Virus record (IMG/VR): IMGVR_UViG_3300028534_000019
Location: 31,091 to 95,090 of that record
DNA length: 64,000 nt
Reading direction: 5' to 3' (one strand)
From: a virus
Taxonomy: Duplodnaviria; Heunggongvirae; Uroviricota; Caudoviricetes
Shown here: piece after piece, positions 6,640 through 53,952 of the stretch
Numbering within the stretch: the first letter of the stretch is position 1
Layout of the letters: each line of letters opens with the position of its first letter
The notes under the pieces: model-generated
The model's input: the letters and a program-made list of their open reading frames with translations, nothing else
What the model was told of the DNA's origin: nothing
Databases searched by the model: none
Program-made: the position numbers and the translations under genes

Positions 6640-6640
6640 T

Positions 6641-6708
6641 TTTTAAGTTTCATTTAAGTTTAATATGTTATAATTTTACATATCAAAAGACAAAAAGGAT
6701 TTAAAATG
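6641..6708 (+). repeat. 68-bp promoter/leader cassette, copy A (67/68 identical to 36837-36904)
   Basis: TTTTAAGTTTCATTTAAGTTTAATATGTTATAATTTTACATATCAAAAGACAAAAAGGATTTAAAATG. Contains TTAAGT (6654), TGT-TATAAT (6666-6674), an RBS and the ATG. Confidence 0.85.
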
Positions 6709-15816: not shown

Positions 15817-15838
15817 TTAAGCATATAGTAGCTATAAT
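15817..15838 (+). promoter_or_regulatory. Promoter candidate (TTAAGC-N10-TATAAT)
   Basis: TTAAGCATATAGTAGCTATAAT. The -10 element and leader are shared with 32565-32605. Confidence 0.5.
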
Positions 15839-15870
15839 ACTACATATAAAACATAAAAGGATTAGAAATG
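15830..15870 (+). repeat. 41-bp -10/leader cassette (40/41 identical to 32565-32605)
   Basis: AGCTATAATACTACATATAAAACATAAAAGGATTAGAAATG versus ...GGATTAAAAATG. Confidence 0.85.
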
Positions 15871-18639: not shown

Positions 18640-20490
18640 ATGGCAGTTATTGGTATAGATTTAGGAACGACAAATAGTGCTGTTTCAGTTTATGAAGTAG
18701 GGGAATTTAAAATTATTCCTAATGCTGAGGGTAAAAATACAACACCTAGTATTGTAGCATTTACAGATAAAGGGGATGTATTAGTAGGGGAATCAGCAAA
18801 AAGACAAGCAGTCACAAACCCTGAAAAAACTATTGAAGCAATTAAAAGAATTATGGGTATGCAATTTAATGAACCTAGATGTAAAGAGGCTCAAGAAAAA
18901 GTACAATATAAAATTGTAGATAAAAATGGTTTGGCCGCTGTTGATGTTGATGGTAAGATTTATACACCACAAGAAATTTCAGCTAAAATCCTTACAAAAC
19001 TAAAAGATGATGCAGAAGCATTTATTGGTAAAGAAGTTACAGATGCTGTAATTACAGTTCCAGCATACTTTAATGATGCTCAGAGAAAGGCGACACAAGA
19101 GGCAGGCGTTATTGCAGGGCTTAATGTACTAAGAATTATTAATGAACCTACTTCGGCCGCTCTTGCTTATGGTTTGGACAAAAAAGGTGAGGAAAATATT
19201 CTTGTTTATGATTTTGGTGGTGGTACTTTTGATGTATCTGTATTAGAAATTGGAGATGGTACTTTTGAAGTTCTTTCAACTGATGGTAATGCTTTCTTAG
19301 GTGGTAAAGACTTTGACCAAATTTTAGTTAATTATATTGCTGAATATTTTAAAGAGAAACAGGGTGTTGATTTAAGAAATGATAAAATGGCACTTCAAAG
19401 ATTATATGATGCTTCAGAAAATGCTAAAAAAGAGTTATCAAGTGTTGTAGAAACTGAAATTAACTTACCATTTATTACTATGACAGAAGCCGGCCCGCAG
19501 CATCTTGTTTTAAAAATTTCAAGAGGTAAATTTGAGGGGTTAGTACAAAATCTTGTAGATGAAACTATTGAACATATTACAACAGCATTACAAGACGCTG
19601 GTTTAAGTGTAGATGATATTAGTGAATTGATTATGGTTGGTGGCTCAACAAGAATACCTTTAGTACAAGAGGCAGTTTCAAAGTATTTTAAAGGTAAAAC
19701 TCTTAATAAATCTGTTAATCCTGATGAAGTTGTAGCCGCTGGTGCTTCAATTCAAGGTGGTGTATTAACAGGAGATGTAAAAGATGTTCTTCTTCTTGAT
19801 GTTACACCATTATCACTTGGTATTGAAACTATGGGTGGTATTGCTACTAAAATCATCCCAAAAGGTACAACTATTCCTGTTAAAAAATCAGAAATCTTTA
19901 GTACAGCAGTTGATAATCAACCAGCAGTTAGTATTGTAGTAGTACAAGGTGAAGCAAAATTAGCAGAAGATAATAAATCTTTAGGACAATTTAATCTTGA
20001 GGGTATAACACCAGCTAAAAAAGGTGTACCACAAATTGAAGTTAATTTTGATGTTGATTCTAATGGTGTTTTGAGTGTATCAGCTATTGATAAAGGAACA
20101 GGTAAAGAACAGAAAATAACAATTACAGGTTCGACAGGTTTAAGTGAAGAAGAAATTAGAAAGATGATTGATGATGCTGAAAAACAAAATCAAGAAAAGG
20201 CTGAAAAAATTAAAGCAATTGAAGCAAAAAATGAATTGGATGCTACTCTTTCAAGAATTAAAAACTTTAATGATGAAGAAAAAAATGAAGTGCTATCAGC
20301 TAAAATTTCTGATGTTGAAGAATATGTAAAAGAAGATAGAACAGCAGAAGAAATTAGAAAAATTAGAGATGAACTTGAAGAAGTTTATTTAAAAGCATTT
20401 GAAGAGAAATCAAAAAGAAATGAAGGTGCTGAGGTAAAAGAAAGCACTGAAAATAATGATGATGTTATTGATGCTGAAATTGAAGAATAA
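18640..20490 (+). CDS. dnaK: Hsp70 chaperone DnaK (canonical bacterial type)
   Basis: [69 protein letters not shown], and an acidic tail [10 protein letters not shown]. Confidence 0.95.
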
Positions 20491-24447: not shown

Positions 24448-25548
24448 ATGTTAGTTCAAAATAAAAAAGTTCCAAAAGAAACATTAGAGTTATTGGACTC
24501 TAAAATAGAAGAATTTGAAAAAAATACAAATTCAACTGTTTTATATATTACAATTACAGGTTCTGTTCTTTATGGTACTGATAATGAAAATAGTGATTTA
24601 GATTTTAAAGGTATTTTTATGCCTAATCTAAAAGAAGTGCTTATTGGTAATACACCTAGTGCTTTTGTTTTTAATTCAAATACAAAAGATAAAAACTCTT
24701 CTGATGATATTGATTTAACATTACACCCTGTAAATGACTTCTTTAATCATCTTAGAAAATCTGAAACAGGTGCTGTTGATTTACTTTTTAGTATGTTTAG
24801 AGAAGATACTATTGTTTTTGATGATGGTATTTTCACGAACTTTATGAAGAAAAATTATCAAAAGTTTAGAAATTCTAATATGAAAAGTTTTATCGGTTAT
24901 GCTGTTGGTCAAACTAAAAAATTTGGGATTAAAGGTGCTAGATATGAAGAGTTAGATGTTTTTTATAAAGATTGTGTTAATTATTTTAATCTTGCTCCAA
25001 AAGAAAATAAATTAGGTGAATATTGGGATTTTCTTGAACTAAAAGCCCAAGGTAAAAAATATATTAAGTTTACAAAAGCAGAAGGTGCTAGAAGAAATGA
25101 TGGTAGTAGTAATATCATTGATTATATTTCTGTTCTTGGTAAACTATATCATAAAGATGTAACAGTAGGTTATTTTTTAGAAAGAGTTTCTAAATTTTAT
25201 AATCAATTTGGTAATAGAACTAAAACAGTAGCTAAAACTGAATCAAAAACAGATTGGAAAGCAATGAGCCACGCCCTTAGAGTAGCTATGGAAGTTAAAG
25301 AGTTACTTCAATTTGGTTTTATTAAATTTCCATTGACTTATGCTGATGAGATTAAAGAAGTTAAATTTGGTAACAGAGAAGAACAAGAAACATTAGATAA
25401 AATTAGAGATGTATTGGGTGAAGTTGATACAATATTAGAAAATATTGATAAAGATAACTTTCCTTGTGAAATGAGTGAAGAATTACTTAAAAAATTAAAA
25501 TGGGAAGTAATTCTTCTATATAAAGAGTTTTTAGATTTAGGTTTTTAA
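24448..25548 (+). CDS. Nucleotidyltransferase (RlaP/PF10127-like, Pol-beta superfamily)
   Basis: ITITGSVLYGTDNENSDLDFKGIF gives the GS...G...D-x-D NTase signature of the RNA-ligase-associated family. Confidence 0.65.
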   Translation: MLVQNKKVPKETLELLDSKIEEFEKNTNSTVLYITITGSVLYGTDNENSDLDFKGIFMPNLKEVLIGNTPSAFVFNSNTKDKNSSDDIDLTLHPVNDFFNHLRKSETGAVDLLFSMFREDTIVFDDGIFTNFMKKNYQKFRNSNMKSFIGYAVGQTKKFGIKGARYEELDVFYKDCVNYFNLAPKENKLGEYWDFLELKAQGKKYIKFTKAEGARRNDGSSNIIDYISVLGKLYHKDVTVGYFLERVSKFYNQFGNRTKTVAKTESKTDWKAMSHALRVAMEVKELLQFGFIKFPLTYADEIKEVKFGNREEQETLDKIRDVLGEVDTILENIDKDNFPCEMSEELLKKLKWEVILLYKEFLDLGF

Positions 25549-30909: not shown

Positions 30910-31217
30910 TGTCAAAGCAATGGCTTAGTGAATTAATAGAACAGCCATATGAATGGTGTATTGAAACTGTTACAAAAGAGCCTGAATTACTAAAAAATAT
31001 AAAAGTACAAACACAAGAACTTTGTGAAATAGCATTTTATGAAGATTATAAAACAGCAAAATATATACATCAAGAATTTAGATTTAATGAGAGAATTTTA
31101 GCTATTGCTCGACAGCATAGTTTATTAAATAAAAGCATACCACAAGATATGCTTGAAAAAATAAATGAATATCCATATAATTACTTTGAAAAGAAATATC
31201 CTGAAATCTTTTTCTAA
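30909..31217 (+). CDS. Hypothetical protein with tandem C-terminal motif (EYPYNYF then KYPEIFF)
   Basis: Ends ...KINEYPYNYFEKKYPEIFF*. Confidence 0.55.
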   Translation: MSKQWLSELIEQPYEWCIETVTKEPELLKNIKVQTQELCEIAFYEDYKTAKYIHQEFRFNERILAIARQHSLLNKSIPQDMLEKINEYPYNYFEKKYPEIFF

Positions 31218-32552: not shown

Positions 32553-32573
32553 TTAAGAATATTCAGCTATAAT
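32553..32573 (+). promoter_or_regulatory. Promoter candidate (TTAAGA-N9-TATAAT)
   Basis: TTAAGAATATTCAGCTATAAT. The -10 element and leader are shared with 15830-15870. Confidence 0.5.
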
Positions 32574-32602
32574 ACTACATATAAAACATAAAAGGATTAA
32601 AA

Positions 32603-33464: not shown

Positions 33465-34577
33465 ATGAAAATTACAGAGATTAAACCTATTTTACAGTTT
33501 TCTAAAGATGCTGATGATGCTGTAATCATTGAGGGTAAACACGGTATTGGTAAATCAGAAATAGTTAAACAATATTGTTCGGAAAATGGTTATTTTTATA
33601 CTGTTTTATTTTTAAGTCATCAAGAAGTTGGTGATTTGATTGGTATGCCTTTTGAAAAAAATGGTATTCAATATTGGTCTAAACCATCTTGGTTAGTAAG
33701 AATGGAAGAAGCATCAGCAAGAGGGGAACATAATGTTTTACTCTTAGATGAGTTAAACCGAGCCCAAACTGATGTATTACAAAGTGCTTTACAACTTGTT
33801 TTAGAAAGACAAATTCACGAGCATTTCTTACCTACTACTGATGGTGTAAGAAGTCAAGTAATTGCTTGTATTAACCCTGATGATGATTTATATCAAGTAA
33901 TTACACTTGACCCAGCACTAAAAGATAGATTTTTACATTTAAAAACAAGTGAAGATTTACAAGGATGGGTTAAATGGGGTGGTGAAAAAGGAGTACCTGA
34001 TGTTGTTATTCATTACTTGCTTGAAAATGAAAATGATTTTCATAGTACAAATGAAGATGGTGAGGGTGCTACACCAAGAAGTTGGTATAAATTAAGTCAA
34101 TTCTTGAAAATATTTGAAGATAAAGAAGTTGAAGAATTTCAACTTTGGGAGATTATTAAAGGTAAAGTAGGTTCAAGTATCGGTAGCAAATTCCTTAACT
34201 TTTATAATACTCATAGTACATTTATTGATGTTACAAAAATTAAAAAGTTTTTAAATAAATATAAAAGAGATATTTCTGATTTACCTGAAATTGGTGCTGA
34301 ATTAGCTAGTTATATTAAAGGTCTTGAACAAGTAACTAAAGTAGAACAAGTTAATAAACTATATCACGACAGTATTGAAAAAATTAAAGATACTAAAGTT
34401 ACTATGGATGATGAAGATATTTTCACTATTTTTGCTATGCTTCACGCTTTTGAAATAGAAGTAACAACATCAGTTATGAAGCAATGGAAAAATGAAAGTG
34501 TGAGTGATTTTATGGATTTTGTTAAAAAAGATAATAAAGAACTCATTACATTAATAACAAGAAGATTAAAAACATAA
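33465..34577 (+). CDS. AAA+ ATPase (MoxR / AAA_5-like)
   Basis: Walker A IIEGKHGIGKSE, Walker B plus sensor LLLDELNRAQTDVLQSALQLVLER, and ACINPDD...LDPALKDRF. Confidence 0.8.
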   Translation: MKITEIKPILQFSKDADDAVIIEGKHGIGKSEIVKQYCSENGYFYTVLFLSHQEVGDLIGMPFEKNGIQYWSKPSWLVRMEEASARGEHNVLLLDELNRAQTDVLQSALQLVLERQIHEHFLPTTDGVRSQVIACINPDDDLYQVITLDPALKDRFLHLKTSEDLQGWVKWGGEKGVPDVVIHYLLENENDFHSTNEDGEGATPRSWYKLSQFLKIFEDKEVEEFQLWEIIKGKVGSSIGSKFLNFYNTHSTFIDVTKIKKFLNKYKRDISDLPEIGAELASYIKGLEQVTKVEQVNKLYHDSIEKIKDTKVTMDDEDIFTIFAMLHAFEIEVTTSVMKQWKNESVSDFMDFVKKDNKELITLITRRLKT

Positions 34578-43497: not shown

Positions 43498-43989
43498 GTG
43501 AAAAAATATGATAATGTGTTAATGATTAATGCTAAATCTTGGGCAAAACAGAGTTACTGTAATAGAAAAAAAGTAGGTGCTGTTTTAGCCAAAGATGGTA
43601 GGATTTTAGCAACAGGTTATAATGGTACTATCTCAGGTACTGAAAATTGTTGTGAAGAAAAATGTGATGTTTGTAATGGTACAGGTAGGTCATATTTAGA
43701 TGATGAAGAATATTGTCCTAGATGTAATGGTGGTGGTAAAATTACAAATGATTTTACATTACACGCTGAACAAAATATAATTACATTTTGTGCTAAAGAA
43801 GGAATACCAACAAAAGATACTACGATTTACATTACTCTAAGCCCTTGTAAAACTTGTGCTAAATTAATTGCTCAAAGTGGTATTAAAAGAGTTGTGTATA
43901 ATGAACAATATAGAGATACATCAGGTGTTGATTTTCTTAAAAATCTTGGAATACAATGTGAACAACATAATACAAAAGGAAAAGAATGA
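43498..43989 (+). CDS. dCMP deaminase (ComEB/Cd family) with an extra Cys-rich insert
   Basis: GYNG...HAEQNII (HAE) and LSPCKTCAKLI (PCxxC). The insert is CCEEKCDVCNGTGRSYLDDEEYCPRCNGGGK. GTG start. Confidence 0.85.
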   Translation: MKKYDNVLMINAKSWAKQSYCNRKKVGAVLAKDGRILATGYNGTISGTENCCEEKCDVCNGTGRSYLDDEEYCPRCNGGGKITNDFTLHAEQNIITFCAKEGIPTKDTTIYITLSPCKTCAKLIAQSGIKRVVYNEQYRDTSGVDFLKNLGIQCEQHNTKGKE

Positions 43990-49692: not shown

Positions 49693-52600
49693 ATGAGTGC
49701 TAACAAAAGAACTAATAAAAGAAAAACTTTTAAAAAACCTACATTAATAACTTTACCAAAAATAAAAGGTAGTGATTATAGAAATAAAGATAATTATGAA
49801 GAACCTAATGGTTTTAAAGAAAAAAAATCTAAACCATCATCTTTATTTGCTAAAATGGCTCAAGATTTAGCTAAGGTTAAAAAAGAGAATGAAGAATTAA
49901 ATAATAAACTTGAAAAAATTTATGAAGTTCAAAAAAACTCTAATGCTCAGATAATCAAAAACCAACAACAAAGTATAGATATACAGCACGACCAAATGGA
50001 ACAACAAAGAGAGGCTGAATATAAAAAAGAACATTCTTATGCTAAAAAAGTAAAAGAAAAAATAGTTTATATTAAAGAAAAAACTAAAGATTCTTTATCA
50101 AATGCTGGTGGAAAAATCAAGAATGGTTTTAATAAAGTAAAACAGAAAACATCAGGTTTTTTTGATTTTATAAAGAAAGCAGCGGGAATAGCATTATTTT
50201 TAAAACTTTTTTGGCCGGTGATTAAAAAGAAAGTGATACCTTATGTTAAAGATACACTAATACCTCAAATTAAAGATTTTTTAAATAATAAAGTAATACC
50301 ATTTTTTAAAGATACTGTAATACCCGGCTTAGAGAAATTTTTCAAAGATACACTTTGGCCGATGATAAAAAACAATTTTGGTGATATTTTAAAAGGGTTA
50401 GGTATAACAGCATTTTTGTTAAATCCTGTTAAATTTATAACAACAGCAATAAAATTGGCTTTTAAAACTACTTTTTTTGGAATTAAACAAATAGTAAAAT
50501 TATTACCTAAACTAGCAGGTTTTTTAAAATCACCAGCAAAATATTTAGCAACAAAAGGGTTAGATTTAGCTAAACAAGGTGCTACTAAGGTTTCTGATTT
50601 AGCTAAACAAGGTGCTACTAAGGTTTCTGATTTAGCTAAACAAGGTGCTACTAAGGTTTCTGATTTAGCTAGAGATGGAGTTGATGCTGTTTCTGATTTT
50701 ACAAAAAATGATAGTATAAGTGATATGGCTGAAAATGGTTATGATAAATTAAAAGACTCTAAAGGAAGTGGTGGTTTATTAGAAAAAATTAATAAAAAAA
50801 TTGATTCTATGAAAGAAAAAATAACAAAAATTTCAGGGTCTTTGATAGATAAAGGAATTGGTTTAGCTAAAAAATTACCATCAAGTTTTGGTGCCGCACT
50901 GAAAATGTTAAAACCACTAGCAAAACTTATTCCATTTTTAGGAACAGCATTAATGGTGTGGGATGTTATAGATTTATTTTTCCCTAATTTAACAAGTAAA
51001 CTCACAGAATTTTTTAGTTGGAAGAATATTAAAGAAATGGCTTCAAGTATATGGGAAAAAGTTAAAGAAGTATTTGGTAGTGTTTCTAAATGGATAAGTG
51101 ATAAATTTAGTGGTATAATTTCAAGTGTAAGAAAAATGGTAGGTAAATTATTTTTAATGAGTCCTATGACTGCATTGTTACCTGATTCTATTAAGAAAAA
51201 AGTATATAATTTTATTGTAGGAGATGATAAAGAAGCTAAAAAAGAAGAAAAATCTTCAGCTATGTTTAAAAAAGGTTATGCTAATGATGATTGGGGTGAT
51301 AATAGTATAAATGAACAAAAGATTAAAAAAGATTTAAAAACAGGTAAAATTAATATTAAAGATTTAGAAGCATTGTTACAATATGGGAATTTAGATGAAG
51401 ATGAACAAGATAAATTAAAGAAAATAATTTCTTCTAATACTAAAACTAAAAAAACTAAAAAAACTTTAGGTAATGTTTCATCTATTAGTAATACTACTGA
51501 TGTTAAAAAACCTCTAACAAAAGAACAAAAACAAGATAATTATATTAAATCTATGGATGCCCAAATTGGAGCATTTACAAAAACAAGAGATAAAATTAAA
51601 ACAGCACTTGATAATAAAGATTTAAGTCCTAAGAAAAGAAAAGGTTTAGAGAAAGCATTATCTTATTATGATACACTTATCAAGAAGAAACAAGAAAAGA
51701 AACAAAGTTTAGTAAAACATAAAAAACATAAAAAACCTACAAGAACATCAGAATCATCATATATGATGGCTGATGGGAAAGGTGGGAAAGTTCCAATAAC
51801 TAAAGAGCAACACGACAGAATGGATGCCATTCAAAATAAAATTTCTGTTGCTTTTGATGGTGGAAACAGTGAAGAAATAGATAAATTACTTAAAGAACAA
51901 GAAGATTTAAGAGCAACAATAATTAAAGAAGGATTTAAACCTTCACAAAGTATAAGTATTTCTAATACTTCTAGTAGTTCTAGTACAACAAATAATTCTT
52001 TTGGTAATGTTAGTAATGTTAGTAATGTAGGTAATACTTTTTTATCAGCAAAACCTAATACTGCTCAAAGTGTAGCAAATCCAAGTGAGTCTGAAACACC
52101 AAAAACAGATGGTTTTTTTACTTCTCAAATGAAACCTAGTTTTGATACAAAACCAAAAGATGTAAGTACAAGTGGTTTTAATCAATCACAAAGTAATGAT
52201 TTAGATGATAAAGAAAGAAAACAATTAAAAATGGAAAAAATACCTGCTAAAAAAATATTCAAATTAACAGGTAGTGCTTCAAGTGGTGGTTTTGAAAAAA
52301 TGAATAAATCATTACAACATAATGTTAAATTATTTGGTATGGAATATGCTGAAAAAACAGGAGAAAAACTAACTATTAATTCAGCATATAGAAGTGTTAA
52401 ATTACAAAAAAAATTATTTGAAAATAAGAAAAAAGAAGTAAGAAAAAAACACCCTGAATGGTCAGATAGTCAAGTTCTTAGGGAAACAAGAAGATGGGTA
52501 GCACCTCCAGGGAGAAGCGCACACAATTCAGGTTTAGCAATTGATATAGGTTATCAAAATAGAAAATCTCCATCAATGGATAAAGCAGATAGATTAGGTT

Positions 52601-53952
52601 TATTATCAAAATATGGTTTAACAAGGATGTTACCAAACGAGCCTTGGCATATTACACCATCAAGTTTAACAAAAACTGATTTAAAATCAGTTGCTAATGA
52701 AATAGAACAAGATGTAAAAGATGGTAATTTTACAGAAGATAATATTACAAAAGGAGTATATTTAGCTAAAGCAACAGGTTCTACAATATCAGATATGGAT
52801 GAGCCTGAATTACCAAGTACTTTAGCAAATTCTTTAACACAACCTAAAGAACAAAGTATAACTATACCTAATACAAGTAATGTAGCTAATACAAGTAATG
52901 TAGCTAATACAAGTAATGTAGCTAATACAAGTAATGTAGCTAATACAAGTAATGTAGCTAATACAAGTAATGTTAAAAATAAAAAAAATAAGTTTAAAGA
53001 ACTTGTTAAAAAAATTGATGGGTCAATAGTTTATGCTCAAAGAGGATTAAAAGATTTTGGTATAACTTCTCTTAATCCATCAGATATGGGAGAAGCAAAA
53101 AATAGTGGTGGTTTTGTTGGTAATGAGTCATTATATGATAAACAGGATTCTTTATATACTGATATGTTAAAAAGTCAAAAGGCTCAAAATAATATTGTAA
53201 AAGATTCTTATAATGCTTATAGTACAGTGGATGGTGCTATTAAAACTGAAAATGTACCTGATGGGTATGAAATATATACAACAGATGGTGGTGTATCTAC
53301 ATTAATTAAGAAACCTTTAGAAGATAGCAAGAATAATAAACCTATGGCTAAAGAAGTTGTAAAACAAGAACAACAAATACAACATAAACCTATGGCTAAA
53401 GAAGTTGTAAAACAAGAACAAAATCAAAGTGTATATAAAAAAGGGTTGAGTAAATTTGGTAAAATACTATCTAATCCATTTGAAAGTTTAGGTAATGGAA
53501 TAGAAAAAGTTGTTAGTAAAACACAAGATTTTGGTAACAAAGTTAAAGATGTATTAACTGATAATCCTATTGTTAATAAAGAGAAAGAAATAATAGATAA
53601 TGTTAGTGGTAGTATAAGTGGAATTTTTGGTGGAGTTGAGAATCATTTTGATGATATGAGTTCAAAAATTAAAGGTAAAGATAATATTAATTTATTAAAT
53701 GATAATAAATCATATTCTAAAGCACCTTTACAAAAAGCAAAAGTTAAAAAAACTTCAGCACCAAAAATAGATATTGATAATGTAGCCAAAAAACTATTAG
53801 CATCAAATAAAACAGAAACTAAACAAGTAAAAGATGAAAATAAAGCACCTATAATAATTAATCAGTCATCAGGTGGTGTTAGAAATGATGATGTTTCATT
53901 ACACGAAATAAAACCAAAACAAGATATGTTTGGTATTATGGAGATGTTATAA
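49693..53952 (+). CDS. Tail tape measure / tail length determinator (gp29-like role) with an embedded M15 peptidase domain
   Basis: 1419 aa, K/E-rich and helical, with hydrophobic segments near aa 160-270, internal tandem repeats, and a position between the hub chaperones and the baseplate genes. Confidence 0.75.
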   Translation: MSANKRTNKRKTFKKPTLITLPKIKGSDYRNKDNYEEPNGFKEKKSKPSSLFAKMAQDLAKVKKENEELNNKLEKIYEVQKNSNAQIIKNQQQSIDIQHDQMEQQREAEYKKEHSYAKKVKEKIVYIKEKTKDSLSNAGGKIKNGFNKVKQKTSGFFDFIKKAAGIALFLKLFWPVIKKKVIPYVKDTLIPQIKDFLNNKVIPFFKDTVIPGLEKFFKDTLWPMIKNNFGDILKGLGITAFLLNPVKFITTAIKLAFKTTFFGIKQIVKLLPKLAGFLKSPAKYLATKGLDLAKQGATKVSDLAKQGATKVSDLAKQGATKVSDLARDGVDAVSDFTKNDSISDMAENGYDKLKDSKGSGGLLEKINKKIDSMKEKITKISGSLIDKGIGLAKKLPSSFGAALKMLKPLAKLIPFLGTALMVWDVIDLFFPNLTSKLTEFFSWKNIKEMASSIWEKVKEVFGSVSKWISDKFSGIISSVRKMVGKLFLMSPMTALLPDSIKKKVYNFIVGDDKEAKKEEKSSAMFKKGYANDDWGDNSINEQKIKKDLKTGKINIKDLEALLQYGNLDEDEQDKLKKIISSNTKTKKTKKTLGNVSSISNTTDVKKPLTKEQKQDNYIKSMDAQIGAFTKTRDKIKTALDNKDLSPKKRKGLEKALSYYDTLIKKKQEKKQSLVKHKKHKKPTRTSESSYMMADGKGGKVPITKEQHDRMDAIQNKISVAFDGGNSEEIDKLLKEQEDLRATIIKEGFKPSQSISISNTSSSSSTTNNSFGNVSNVSNVGNTFLSAKPNTAQSVANPSESETPKTDGFFTSQMKPSFDTKPKDVSTSGFNQSQSNDLDDKERKQLKMEKIPAKKIFKLTGSASSGGFEKMNKSLQHNVKLFGMEYAEKTGEKLTINSAYRSVKLQKKLFENKKKEVRKKHPEWSDSQVLRETRRWVAPPGRSAHNSGLAIDIGYQNRKSPSMDKADRLGLLSKYGLTRMLPNEPWHITPSSLTKTDLKSVANEIEQDVKDGNFTEDNITKGVYLAKATGSTISDMDEPELPSTLANSLTQPKEQSITIPNTSNVANTSNVANTSNVANTSNVANTSNVANTSNVKNKKNKFKELVKKIDGSIVYAQRGLKDFGITSLNPSDMGEAKNSGGFVGNESLYDKQDSLYTDMLKSQKAQNNIVKDSYNAYSTVDGAIKTENVPDGYEIYTTDGGVSTLIKKPLEDSKNNKPMAKEVVKQEQQIQHKPMAKEVVKQEQNQSVYKKGLSKFGKILSNPFESLGNGIEKVVSKTQDFGNKVKDVLTDNPIVNKEKEIIDNVSGSISGIFGGVENHFDDMSSKIKGKDNINLLNDNKSYSKAPLQKAKVKKTSAPKIDIDNVAKKLLASNKTETKQVKDENKAPIIINQSSGGVRNDDVSLHEIKPKQDMFGIMEML
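50563..50661 (+). repeat. Perfect 33-nt tandem repeat x3 inside the tape measure (DLAKQGATKVS)
   Basis: GATTTAGCTAAACAAGGTGCTACTAAGGTTTCT starts at 50563, 50596 and 50629. A degenerate fourth unit follows (DLARDGVDAVS). Confidence 0.95.
52370..52660 (+). other. VanY/M15B-like peptidoglycan peptidase domain within the tape measure
   Basis: INSAYRSVKLQKKLF, WVAPPGRSAHNSGLAIDIGY and NEPWHITP give the SxYRS...PGxSxHxxGxAxD...WH pattern. Confidence 0.7.
52870..52974 (+). repeat. Perfect 18-nt tandem repeat x5 plus a partial sixth unit (NTSNVA) inside the tape measure
   Basis: AATACAAGTAATGTAGCT starts at 52870, 52888, 52906, 52924 and 52942. The sixth unit diverges to ...GTTAAA. Confidence 0.95.
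53338..53421 (+). repeat. 36-nt direct repeat x2 with a 12-nt spacer (KPMAKEVVKQEQ) inside the tape measure
   Basis: AAACCTATGGCTAAAGAAGTTGTAAAACAAGAACAA occurs at 53338-53373 and 53386-53421. Confidence 0.9.

Follow-up and report, generated by a model that had tools for sequence, protein, structure and literature searches.

Three exact repeat arrays lie within a single gene of a tailed virus (Duplodnaviria; Heunggongvirae; Uroviricota; Caudoviricetes), IMG/VR record IMGVR_UViG_3300028534_000019, of which we analyzed positions 31,091 to 95,090 (64,000 nucleotides; hereafter the window, with coordinates counted from its first letter). The gene, an open reading frame (ORF) of 1419 codons, encodes a candidate tape-measure protein (TMP) with an embedded peptidase domain. 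Our analysis suggests, with a probability of roughly 0.7, that the arrays are young in-frame duplications generated by replication slippage or unequal recombination in repeat-prone segments of this protein. On this reading, they represent the ordinary way in which tape-measure genes change length and are no special device. Fresh unit duplications laid over an ancient 11-residue array, together with an expanding interdomain linker, would offer a snapshot of length change in a TMP gene.

49693–53952, plus strand: 1419-residue ORF, tape-measure candidate in the position of T4 gp29, with an embedded VanY/M15 peptidase
50563–50671, plus strand: array 1, a nucleotide-perfect 33-nt unit present 3.3 times, encoding DLAKQGATKVS three times at residues 291–323 (Tandem Repeats Finder, TRF)
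52868–52973, plus strand: array 2, a nucleotide-perfect 18-nt unit present 5.9 times, encoding NTSNVA five times plus NTSNV at residues 1060–1094 (TRF)
53336–53421, plus strand: array 3, an exact 38-nt pair at 48-nt spacing, encoding KPMAKEVVKQEQ - QIQH - KPMAKEVVKQEQ at residues 1216–1243 (repeat search, 100%)

Exactness and confinement of the arrays

All three arrays fall inside the one ORF, whose reading frame is intact over its 1419 codons. Arrays 1 and 2 are nucleotide-exact and in frame, as an original prediction made from the sequence letters had held: TRF returned a period of 33 nt with 3.3 copies for array 1 and a period of 18 nt with 5.9 copies for array 2, each with 100% matches (scores 218 and 212), and their longest exact self-matches were 76 nt at offset 33 and 88 nt at offset 18, respectively. 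The first mismatch ending array 2 (base 52974, GTT versus GTA) is synonymous. Array 3 had been described as two tandem units of 36 nt at 53338–53421. The repeat is indeed exact, but it is a 38-nt pair with 48-nt spacing, split by QIQH and not head-to-tail (copies at 53336–53373 and 53384–53421), and it lies outside the span given for the original finding as a whole, which ends at 52974.

An exhaustive scan of the window for exact direct repeats of at least 20 nt yielded only the three arrays and two long-range promoter-like pairs, leaving the arrays as the sole local exact repeats of this length. Both of the arrays that TRF scored highest across the window belong to this ORF, which makes up 6.7% of the window. 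Since at most 4e-13 self-matches of this kind are expected by chance at the base composition of the window, a chance origin of the arrays is excluded. The periods of 33, 18 and 48 nt are all multiples of three, so that a change in copy number would make the protein only slightly longer or shorter and could never turn it off; with frame preserved in this way, a phase-variable simple-sequence contingency locus was rejected as a candidate.

Perfect arrays were found in none of nine related tape-measure genes (0/9), which suggests that the perfect state is transient. These relatives are distant. A word search of a 5.8-billion-cluster protein index with the full-length protein returned two homologues only, P0001 (1214 residues, carried by L001) and P0002 (1720 residues, carried by L002); the N-terminal region gave none among 8000 candidates, a limit that words of low complexity filled. 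An exhaustive HMMER search over 1.84 billion 50%-identity representatives gave P0001 as the best match, at 39% identity, and no closer relative was found in any searched collection. INPHARED contained no Megablast match, in 50,697 phage records tblastn matched the peptidase domain only, scans of IMG/VR found no close relative (our alignment A1 brought in distant ones only), and a scan of GTDB genomes for relatives found none. JGI metagenomes scanned with alignment A1 contained at least seven loci at 24–35% identity. An exact-product look-up of the window protein returned no record.

Array 1 within an older 11-residue array

Array 1 is enclosed by a longer array of 11-residue (hendecad) units, which sits between two hydrophobic segments of the protein (residues 154–280 and 398–437). 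A second, degenerate repeat adjoins the first of these segments.

50530–50853, plus strand: older hendecad array enclosing array 1, about ten units, residues 280–387 (unit identities, autocorrelation)
50209–50394, plus strand: degenerate 8–12-residue 'x-I/W-P-x-x-K-D' repeat (FWPVIKK KVIPYVKD TLIPQIKD...) (TRF, alignment A1)

Taken in order, the nucleotide identities of the hendecad units to the perfect unit are 15/33, then 33/33 three times, 23/33, 18/33 and finally 10–12/33. The 23/33 unit, DLARDGVDAVS (50662–50694), directly follows array 1 and corresponds to the decayed fourth unit that had been noticed in the original prediction. Because perfect units stand beside neighbors that are 70% and 55% identical, recent duplication or homogenization is likely, and the slippage or recombination that had been proposed from exactness gains support from this juxtaposition. 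A substitution rate of 1.9e-4 per site per year has been reported for double-stranded DNA phages (PMC5913663); at this rate, about 290 nt of repeat DNA free of differences would imply an age of decades, or else ongoing homogenization.

The periodicity itself is far more widespread than the perfect units. Lag-11 autocorrelation gave 45 matches against a background of 2–13, and with two identical units removed the peak was still dominant (23 matches versus 2–11). The same peak is present in L001, L002 and L004, with secondary lags of 7, 18 and 22, a combination that is the sequence signature of predicted heptad/hendecad helical repeats. In alignment A1, the units of array 1 match diverged DLAxxGxxKxK units of P0001 and P0002. 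Unit number differs within the family: L002 and L004 (62% identical) differ by exactly 22 residues, or two units, in the hendecad array, with L002 the longer. At closer range, L004 and L005 (90% identical) are set apart there by no more than small tandem duplications (REH/REHREH and NNK/NNKNNK), and L004 and P0003 (99.2% identical) by an 8-residue indel. Judged from these comparisons, the hendecad array is ancestral and its number of units does change as lineages evolve. The conserved GLG and KGIG anchors that flank the hendecad segment are 151 residues apart in the window and L001 alike, and the distance from the same anchor to PFLG ranges from 137 to 211 residues across the wider family. A match of the 11-residue array to P0043, an unrelated DDLAKLG-repeat protein, was rejected and taken as coincidence.

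The neighboring 'x-[IW]-P-x-x-K-D' repeat is older than array 1. TRF detected it as a 24-nt period at 50276–50324 (84% matches) and again at the corresponding position in L001, L003, L004 and L005 (in L001, positions 658–735 of the TMP gene). The window has about six units versus three in the nearest relatives, visible as a 32-residue insertion in alignment A1, and the WP-to-anchor distance is 62 residues in the window, 30 in five relatives and 66–74 in P0006 and P0007. The repeat has expanded independently to about six or seven units in the window, P0006 and P0007. In the distant TMP genes L007, L008 and L009, a repeat of about 26–27 residues, '...(E/K)YGP...', with differing unit numbers, replaces the hendecad array, so that another kind of repeat occupies this position.

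We propose that array 1 would have formed when one unit of the ancient, predicted helical 11-residue array was re-duplicated or homogenized. Existing periodic similarity of the DNA, including the alike unit ends GATTTAGCTA...GTTTCT, would have been the microhomology that seeded the misalignment.

Array 2 and the linkers of the peptidase domain

Array 2 forms the bulk of a linker (residues 1041–1100) downstream of a cell-wall peptidase domain, which is preceded by a linker of similar character.

51955–52209, plus strand: upstream low-complexity linker rich in Asn, Ser and Thr (N/S/T), residues 755–840 (TRF, composition)
52210–52812, plus strand: VanY/M15 (LAS-type) D-Ala-D-Ala carboxypeptidase-like domain, residues ~840–1040 (PF02557)

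The combined N+S+T content is 48% in the upstream linker and 55% in the downstream linker, against about 20% elsewhere. Within the upstream linker lies an SNV tract of three units (GTAATGTTA ×2.8, 52004–52028), and P0001 has an N-rich tract aligned to this linker. The original prediction had the NTSNVA array just after the peptidase and resembling a nearby GNVSNVSNVGN tract. The array does follow the peptidase and the two have an SNV/AGTAATGT core in common, but the tract lies about 290 residues upstream, on the other side of the domain.

The domain matched Pfam PF02557 with E=3.9e-13 (49.8 bits, cutoff 25) and VanY-type carboxypeptidases in PDB with E of about 3e-5, and the zinc-binding and catalytic residues H944, D951, E983 and H986 (H-x6-D ... 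E-x-x-H) are invariant in alignment A1. An AlphaFold2 (AF2) model folds the peptidase core with a block-mean predicted local distance difference test (pLDDT) score that reaches about 93. Over the NTSNVA array, AF2 gave no regular structure (pLDDT 25–28; shallow alignment, weak evidence), and this linker is probably disordered.

A counterpart of NTSNVA was found in neither P0001 nor P0002 in alignment A1, so the array appears to be lineage-specific. Near-perfect peptide repeats of unrelated sequence also sit next to the enzyme domains of other family members (VVTPIVTNKTDNNIT in P0006, KEKKEII in P0029), which suggests that linker expansions are recurrent and independent across the family. We propose that array 2 would be a lineage-specific expansion of an Asn/Ser/Thr-rich linker seeded by low-complexity sequence, one of two such linkers that bracket the globular VanY domain.

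The wider locus is of more interest than the repeats themselves. The gp5-like spike protein of this phage (56365–57435, plus strand) has OB and C-terminal trimerization domains, and a profile search found no lysozyme domain in it. A VanY domain in the gp29-position protein combined with a lysozyme-less gp5 also occurs in L001 and L002, and other family members have different enzyme domains in the gp29-position protein.

Array 3, a spaced pair

Array 3 differs from the others in build. Its two copies are separated by a 10-nt spacer that resembles neither flank (about 2/10), and no counterpart of KPMAKEVVKQEQ was found in P0001 or P0002 in alignment A1. We propose that it would be one local duplication event, with 10 nt of filler between the copies.

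The gene at the tape-measure position

The window, at about 26% GC, codes for a T4-like contractile-tail module. Upstream of the 1419-codon ORF are genes for a gp15-like sheath stabilizer, a gp19-like tube protein and two PF12322 gp26/51-like hub proteins; directly downstream are a phrog_230 gp48-like tube cap gene and then gp5-, gp25- and gp6-like genes. The module order (gp15, gp19-like, two gp26/51-like, the 1419-codon ORF, gp48-like, gp5, gp25, gp6) follows a tail and baseplate gene order that is common to the window, L001, L002 and T4. Given the T4 order 26-51-27-28-29-48-54, the ORF is placed at the gp29 position, and synteny thereby makes it the tape-measure candidate; the original prediction had called it the tape measure. 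Since no homology to T4 gp29 could be detected in its sequence, this label rests on position and composition: alignment A1 compared with T4 gp29 in hhalign gave a probability of 1.8% and no significant similarity, hhalign and BLASTP searches for T4 gp29 and gp48 homology returned nothing significant, and NCBIfam identified only VanY in the 1419-residue protein. An AF2 model of residues 140–440 is nearly all helical, at a mean pLDDT of only 39.5 (three-sequence alignment, low confidence).

The phage appears from its sequence to belong to a deep-branching T4-like lineage of about 26% GC, and the collections that were searched contain no close relative. Its terminase is about 41% identical to that of Vibrio phiKT1024-group phages and 38–39% identical to that of Campylobacter CP220-group phages.

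Weighing the explanations

The original prediction suggested that the arrays could be a built-in device for tuning tail length or host interaction. In this explanation, they would be hypermutable in-frame contingency tracts whose copy number varies in populations and adjusts tail length or peptidase reach to host envelopes. It is compatible with the concentration of all three local exact repeats of the window in one gene, with the position of array 2 next to a cell-wall peptidase and with the differing number of 11-residue units in L002 and L004. Abuladze et al. reportedly found in 1994 that the length of T4 gp29 sets tail length. Tape-measure length in general sets tail length and deletion of repeats shortens tails, and Mahony et al. 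proposed that repeats ease adaptive gain and loss (PMC5099701). Nevertheless, we consider such tuning unlikely. Perfect arrays are absent from 9/9 related genes, so the device is not conserved, and length differences in the family are mostly domain-scale insertions of hundreds of residues. Tape-measure length amounts to about 0.15 nm per residue, and a tube ring to about 4 nm. The 118-nm tail of TP901-1, with some 810 length-determining residues, is consistent with this figure (PMC5099701). A single unit of 6 or 11 residues would then account for about 0.9–1.7 nm, less than one ring, and all arrays combined cover about 6.5% of the protein. The length rule may not hold for array 2, which is probably disordered and occupies a linker next to a globular domain, and the array 1 segment, at 151 residues in both the window and L001, suggests constraint rather than tuning. 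A stronger version, in which copy number differs among virions of one population, would amount to standing heterogeneity in the length of a helical segment between two membrane-active hydrophobic regions and in the VanY tether; we regard it as improbable, though if true, these hypervariable tracts would be a form of bet-hedging, on the thickness of the envelope or on reach into the peptidoglycan. In this version, the NTSNVA and NVS linkers, rich in N-x-S/T, might also serve as modification sites, for example glycosylation sequons.

Could the arrays instead owe their length to the assembler, with copy number misjudged through a collapsed or expanded de Bruijn loop? Arrays 1 and 2 repeat with periods of 33 and 18 nt, yet their total lengths are nearly equal (109 and 106 nt); minimal traversal of a perfect tandem loop gives a length of k to k+p-1, and both arrays could fit a k of 89–106, for example k=99. 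Moreover, the exact window protein is nowhere on record, so there is no independent assembly. However, ordinary reads of 150 nt can cross arrays of up to about 110 nt, as can a final k of 127 or 141, the usual values. The arrays keep the frame and agree with the periodicity and linker composition that the protein already had, array 3 has a unique spacer and cannot be a loop artifact, and the frame holds across all 1419 codons; an artifact consequently seems improbable to us. Function at the DNA level, with the repeats acting as iterons or protein-binding sites in a coding region (for instance a replication origin, pac or regulatory site), is more improbable still. The run of about six 18-nt units with the adjacent A-rich run TTAAAAATAAAAAAAATAAG superficially resembles iteron origins, and the origin of phage lambda is an iteron origin inside gene O. 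Yet the arrays here are absent from syntenic relatives and lie in a late structural gene, their head-to-tail 18-nt period is out of phase with the DNA helix, GC skew has no inflection at them, neither an Rfam family nor any other element coincides with them, and the unit translations fit the local protein composition. An iteron-type replication origin or pac site was therefore rejected, given the lack of conservation in relatives, the structural gene and the lack of a skew inflection.

Young in-frame duplication accommodates these observations more readily, but several points weigh against it. With the nearest relative only 39% identical, the recency of the arrays would rest on indirect signs, and the copy-number polymorphism that the original prediction had called probable is plausible. 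With a spacer unlike either flank, array 3 falls short of a clean tandem duplication and is not fully accounted for by simple slippage. The equal 151-residue anchor distance in the window and L001 could mean gene conversion, or gains offset by losses within a constrained length, rather than simple net expansion. The structural inferences draw on shallow alignments and low-confidence models (three-sequence AF2 alignments, mean pLDDT 52.7 and 39.5, offering weak support only). Finally, myovirus-type TMPs are reported to be mostly without tandem repeats (PMC13585406), so three arrays in one such gene are somewhat unusual.

If the arrays are young duplications, their effect is probably near-neutral. 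At most, they would add 33 residues of helix, about 5 nm or roughly one tube ring, or a longer peptidase tether, and with time they would decay into degenerate repeats like those of the relatives. The arrays could be used as natural markers for strain typing, and their copy number may also come out wrong in short-read assemblies.

Comparison with known tape-measure proteins

Variable copy number of 11-residue units has been described in TMPs (Belcaid, Bergeron and Poisson 2011, PMC3271669), and in TP901-1, where deletion of repeats shortens the tail, repeats were proposed to ease duplication and deletion (Mahony et al. 2016, PMC5099701). The array in the window resembles these siphophage TMPs in its 11-residue period, in its predicted helical segment near hydrophobic regions and in a unit number that varies, with both duplication and loss. 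Unlike them, it has about ten units only, belongs to a T4-like contractile tail and contains three nucleotide-identical units. Nor does it have the [FW]-x(10) pattern in seven or more units or the 11-11-18 pattern of the Belcaid family: the longest [FW] chain is 2, and the only aromatic residues within residues 280–387 are F336, Y284 and Y350. Because the [FW]-x10 marker is absent, we did not assign the array to the Belcaid/Siponen family.

Like T4 gp29, a baseplate hub subunit and tail-length determinator, the protein is encoded after gp26/51-like hub genes and directly before a gp48-like tube cap gene. It differs from gp29 in length (1419 versus 590 residues, or 2.4 times longer), in its hydrophobic segments and VanY peptidase, in a neighboring gp5-like protein that has no lysozyme domain, and in showing no detected sequence similarity to gp29. 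T5 Pb2 and the TMP of mycobacteriophage TM4 are tape measures with an embedded peptidoglycan hydrolase, and the protein described here, a long candidate tape measure predicted to be helical, likewise carries a cell-wall-degrading domain in its middle. PHROG 16823 matched the protein with E=1.3e-15 and the TMP of Rhodobacter phage RcZahn at 47.5% identity over 59 residues, with similarity confined to the peptidase domain; here, in contrast, N/S/T-rich linkers flank the domain and one of them appears to have expanded recently as a perfect 18-nt array.

In a survey of 45,500 TMPs, about half contained tandem repeats, and myovirus-type TMPs were mostly without them (Moreno-Rodriguez et al. 2026, PMC13585406). 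The low-complexity tracts described there resemble those reported here in being S/T/N-rich, with tandem repeats adding to length variation (PMC13585406). Our case differs in that a contractile-tail TMP has three repeats and in that the NTSNVA array has a six-residue unit rather than being a homopolymer.

Other features of the window

Two full-length Hsp70/DnaK-family ORFs occur on the plus strand of the window, at 18640–20490 (616 residues) and 39844–41706 (620 residues), with PF00012 matches of E=1.7e-230 and 4e-141. It is unusual for a phage to encode Hsp70, and even more so to encode two copies. Right upstream of the second ORF lies a full-length transfer-messenger RNA (tmRNA) gene (39452–39772, plus strand) with the ARAGORN tag peptide ANNTDYTGNTVLSA*; it scored 90.8 bits against Rfam RF00023 (gathering score 47), and no tRNA genes were found in the window. 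With this tmRNA, elsewhere in the window, the only Rfam match, an RNA element at the arrays was rejected. The window also encodes an AAA_5 (MoxR-like) ATPase near a DUF2201 metallopeptidase/VWA protein, as well as an RlaP-family nucleotidyltransferase and a dCMP deaminase (33465–34577, 35220–36473, 24448–25548 and 43498–43989; plus strand).

The two long-range exact repeats are intergenic pairs upstream of ORF starts. One joins 6640–6708 with 36836–36904 (20+48 nt, ending ...AAAGGATTTAAAATG) and the other 15830–15864 with 32565–32599 (35 nt), with TATAAT-like boxes; they look like reused cassettes of a promoter and a ribosome-binding site.

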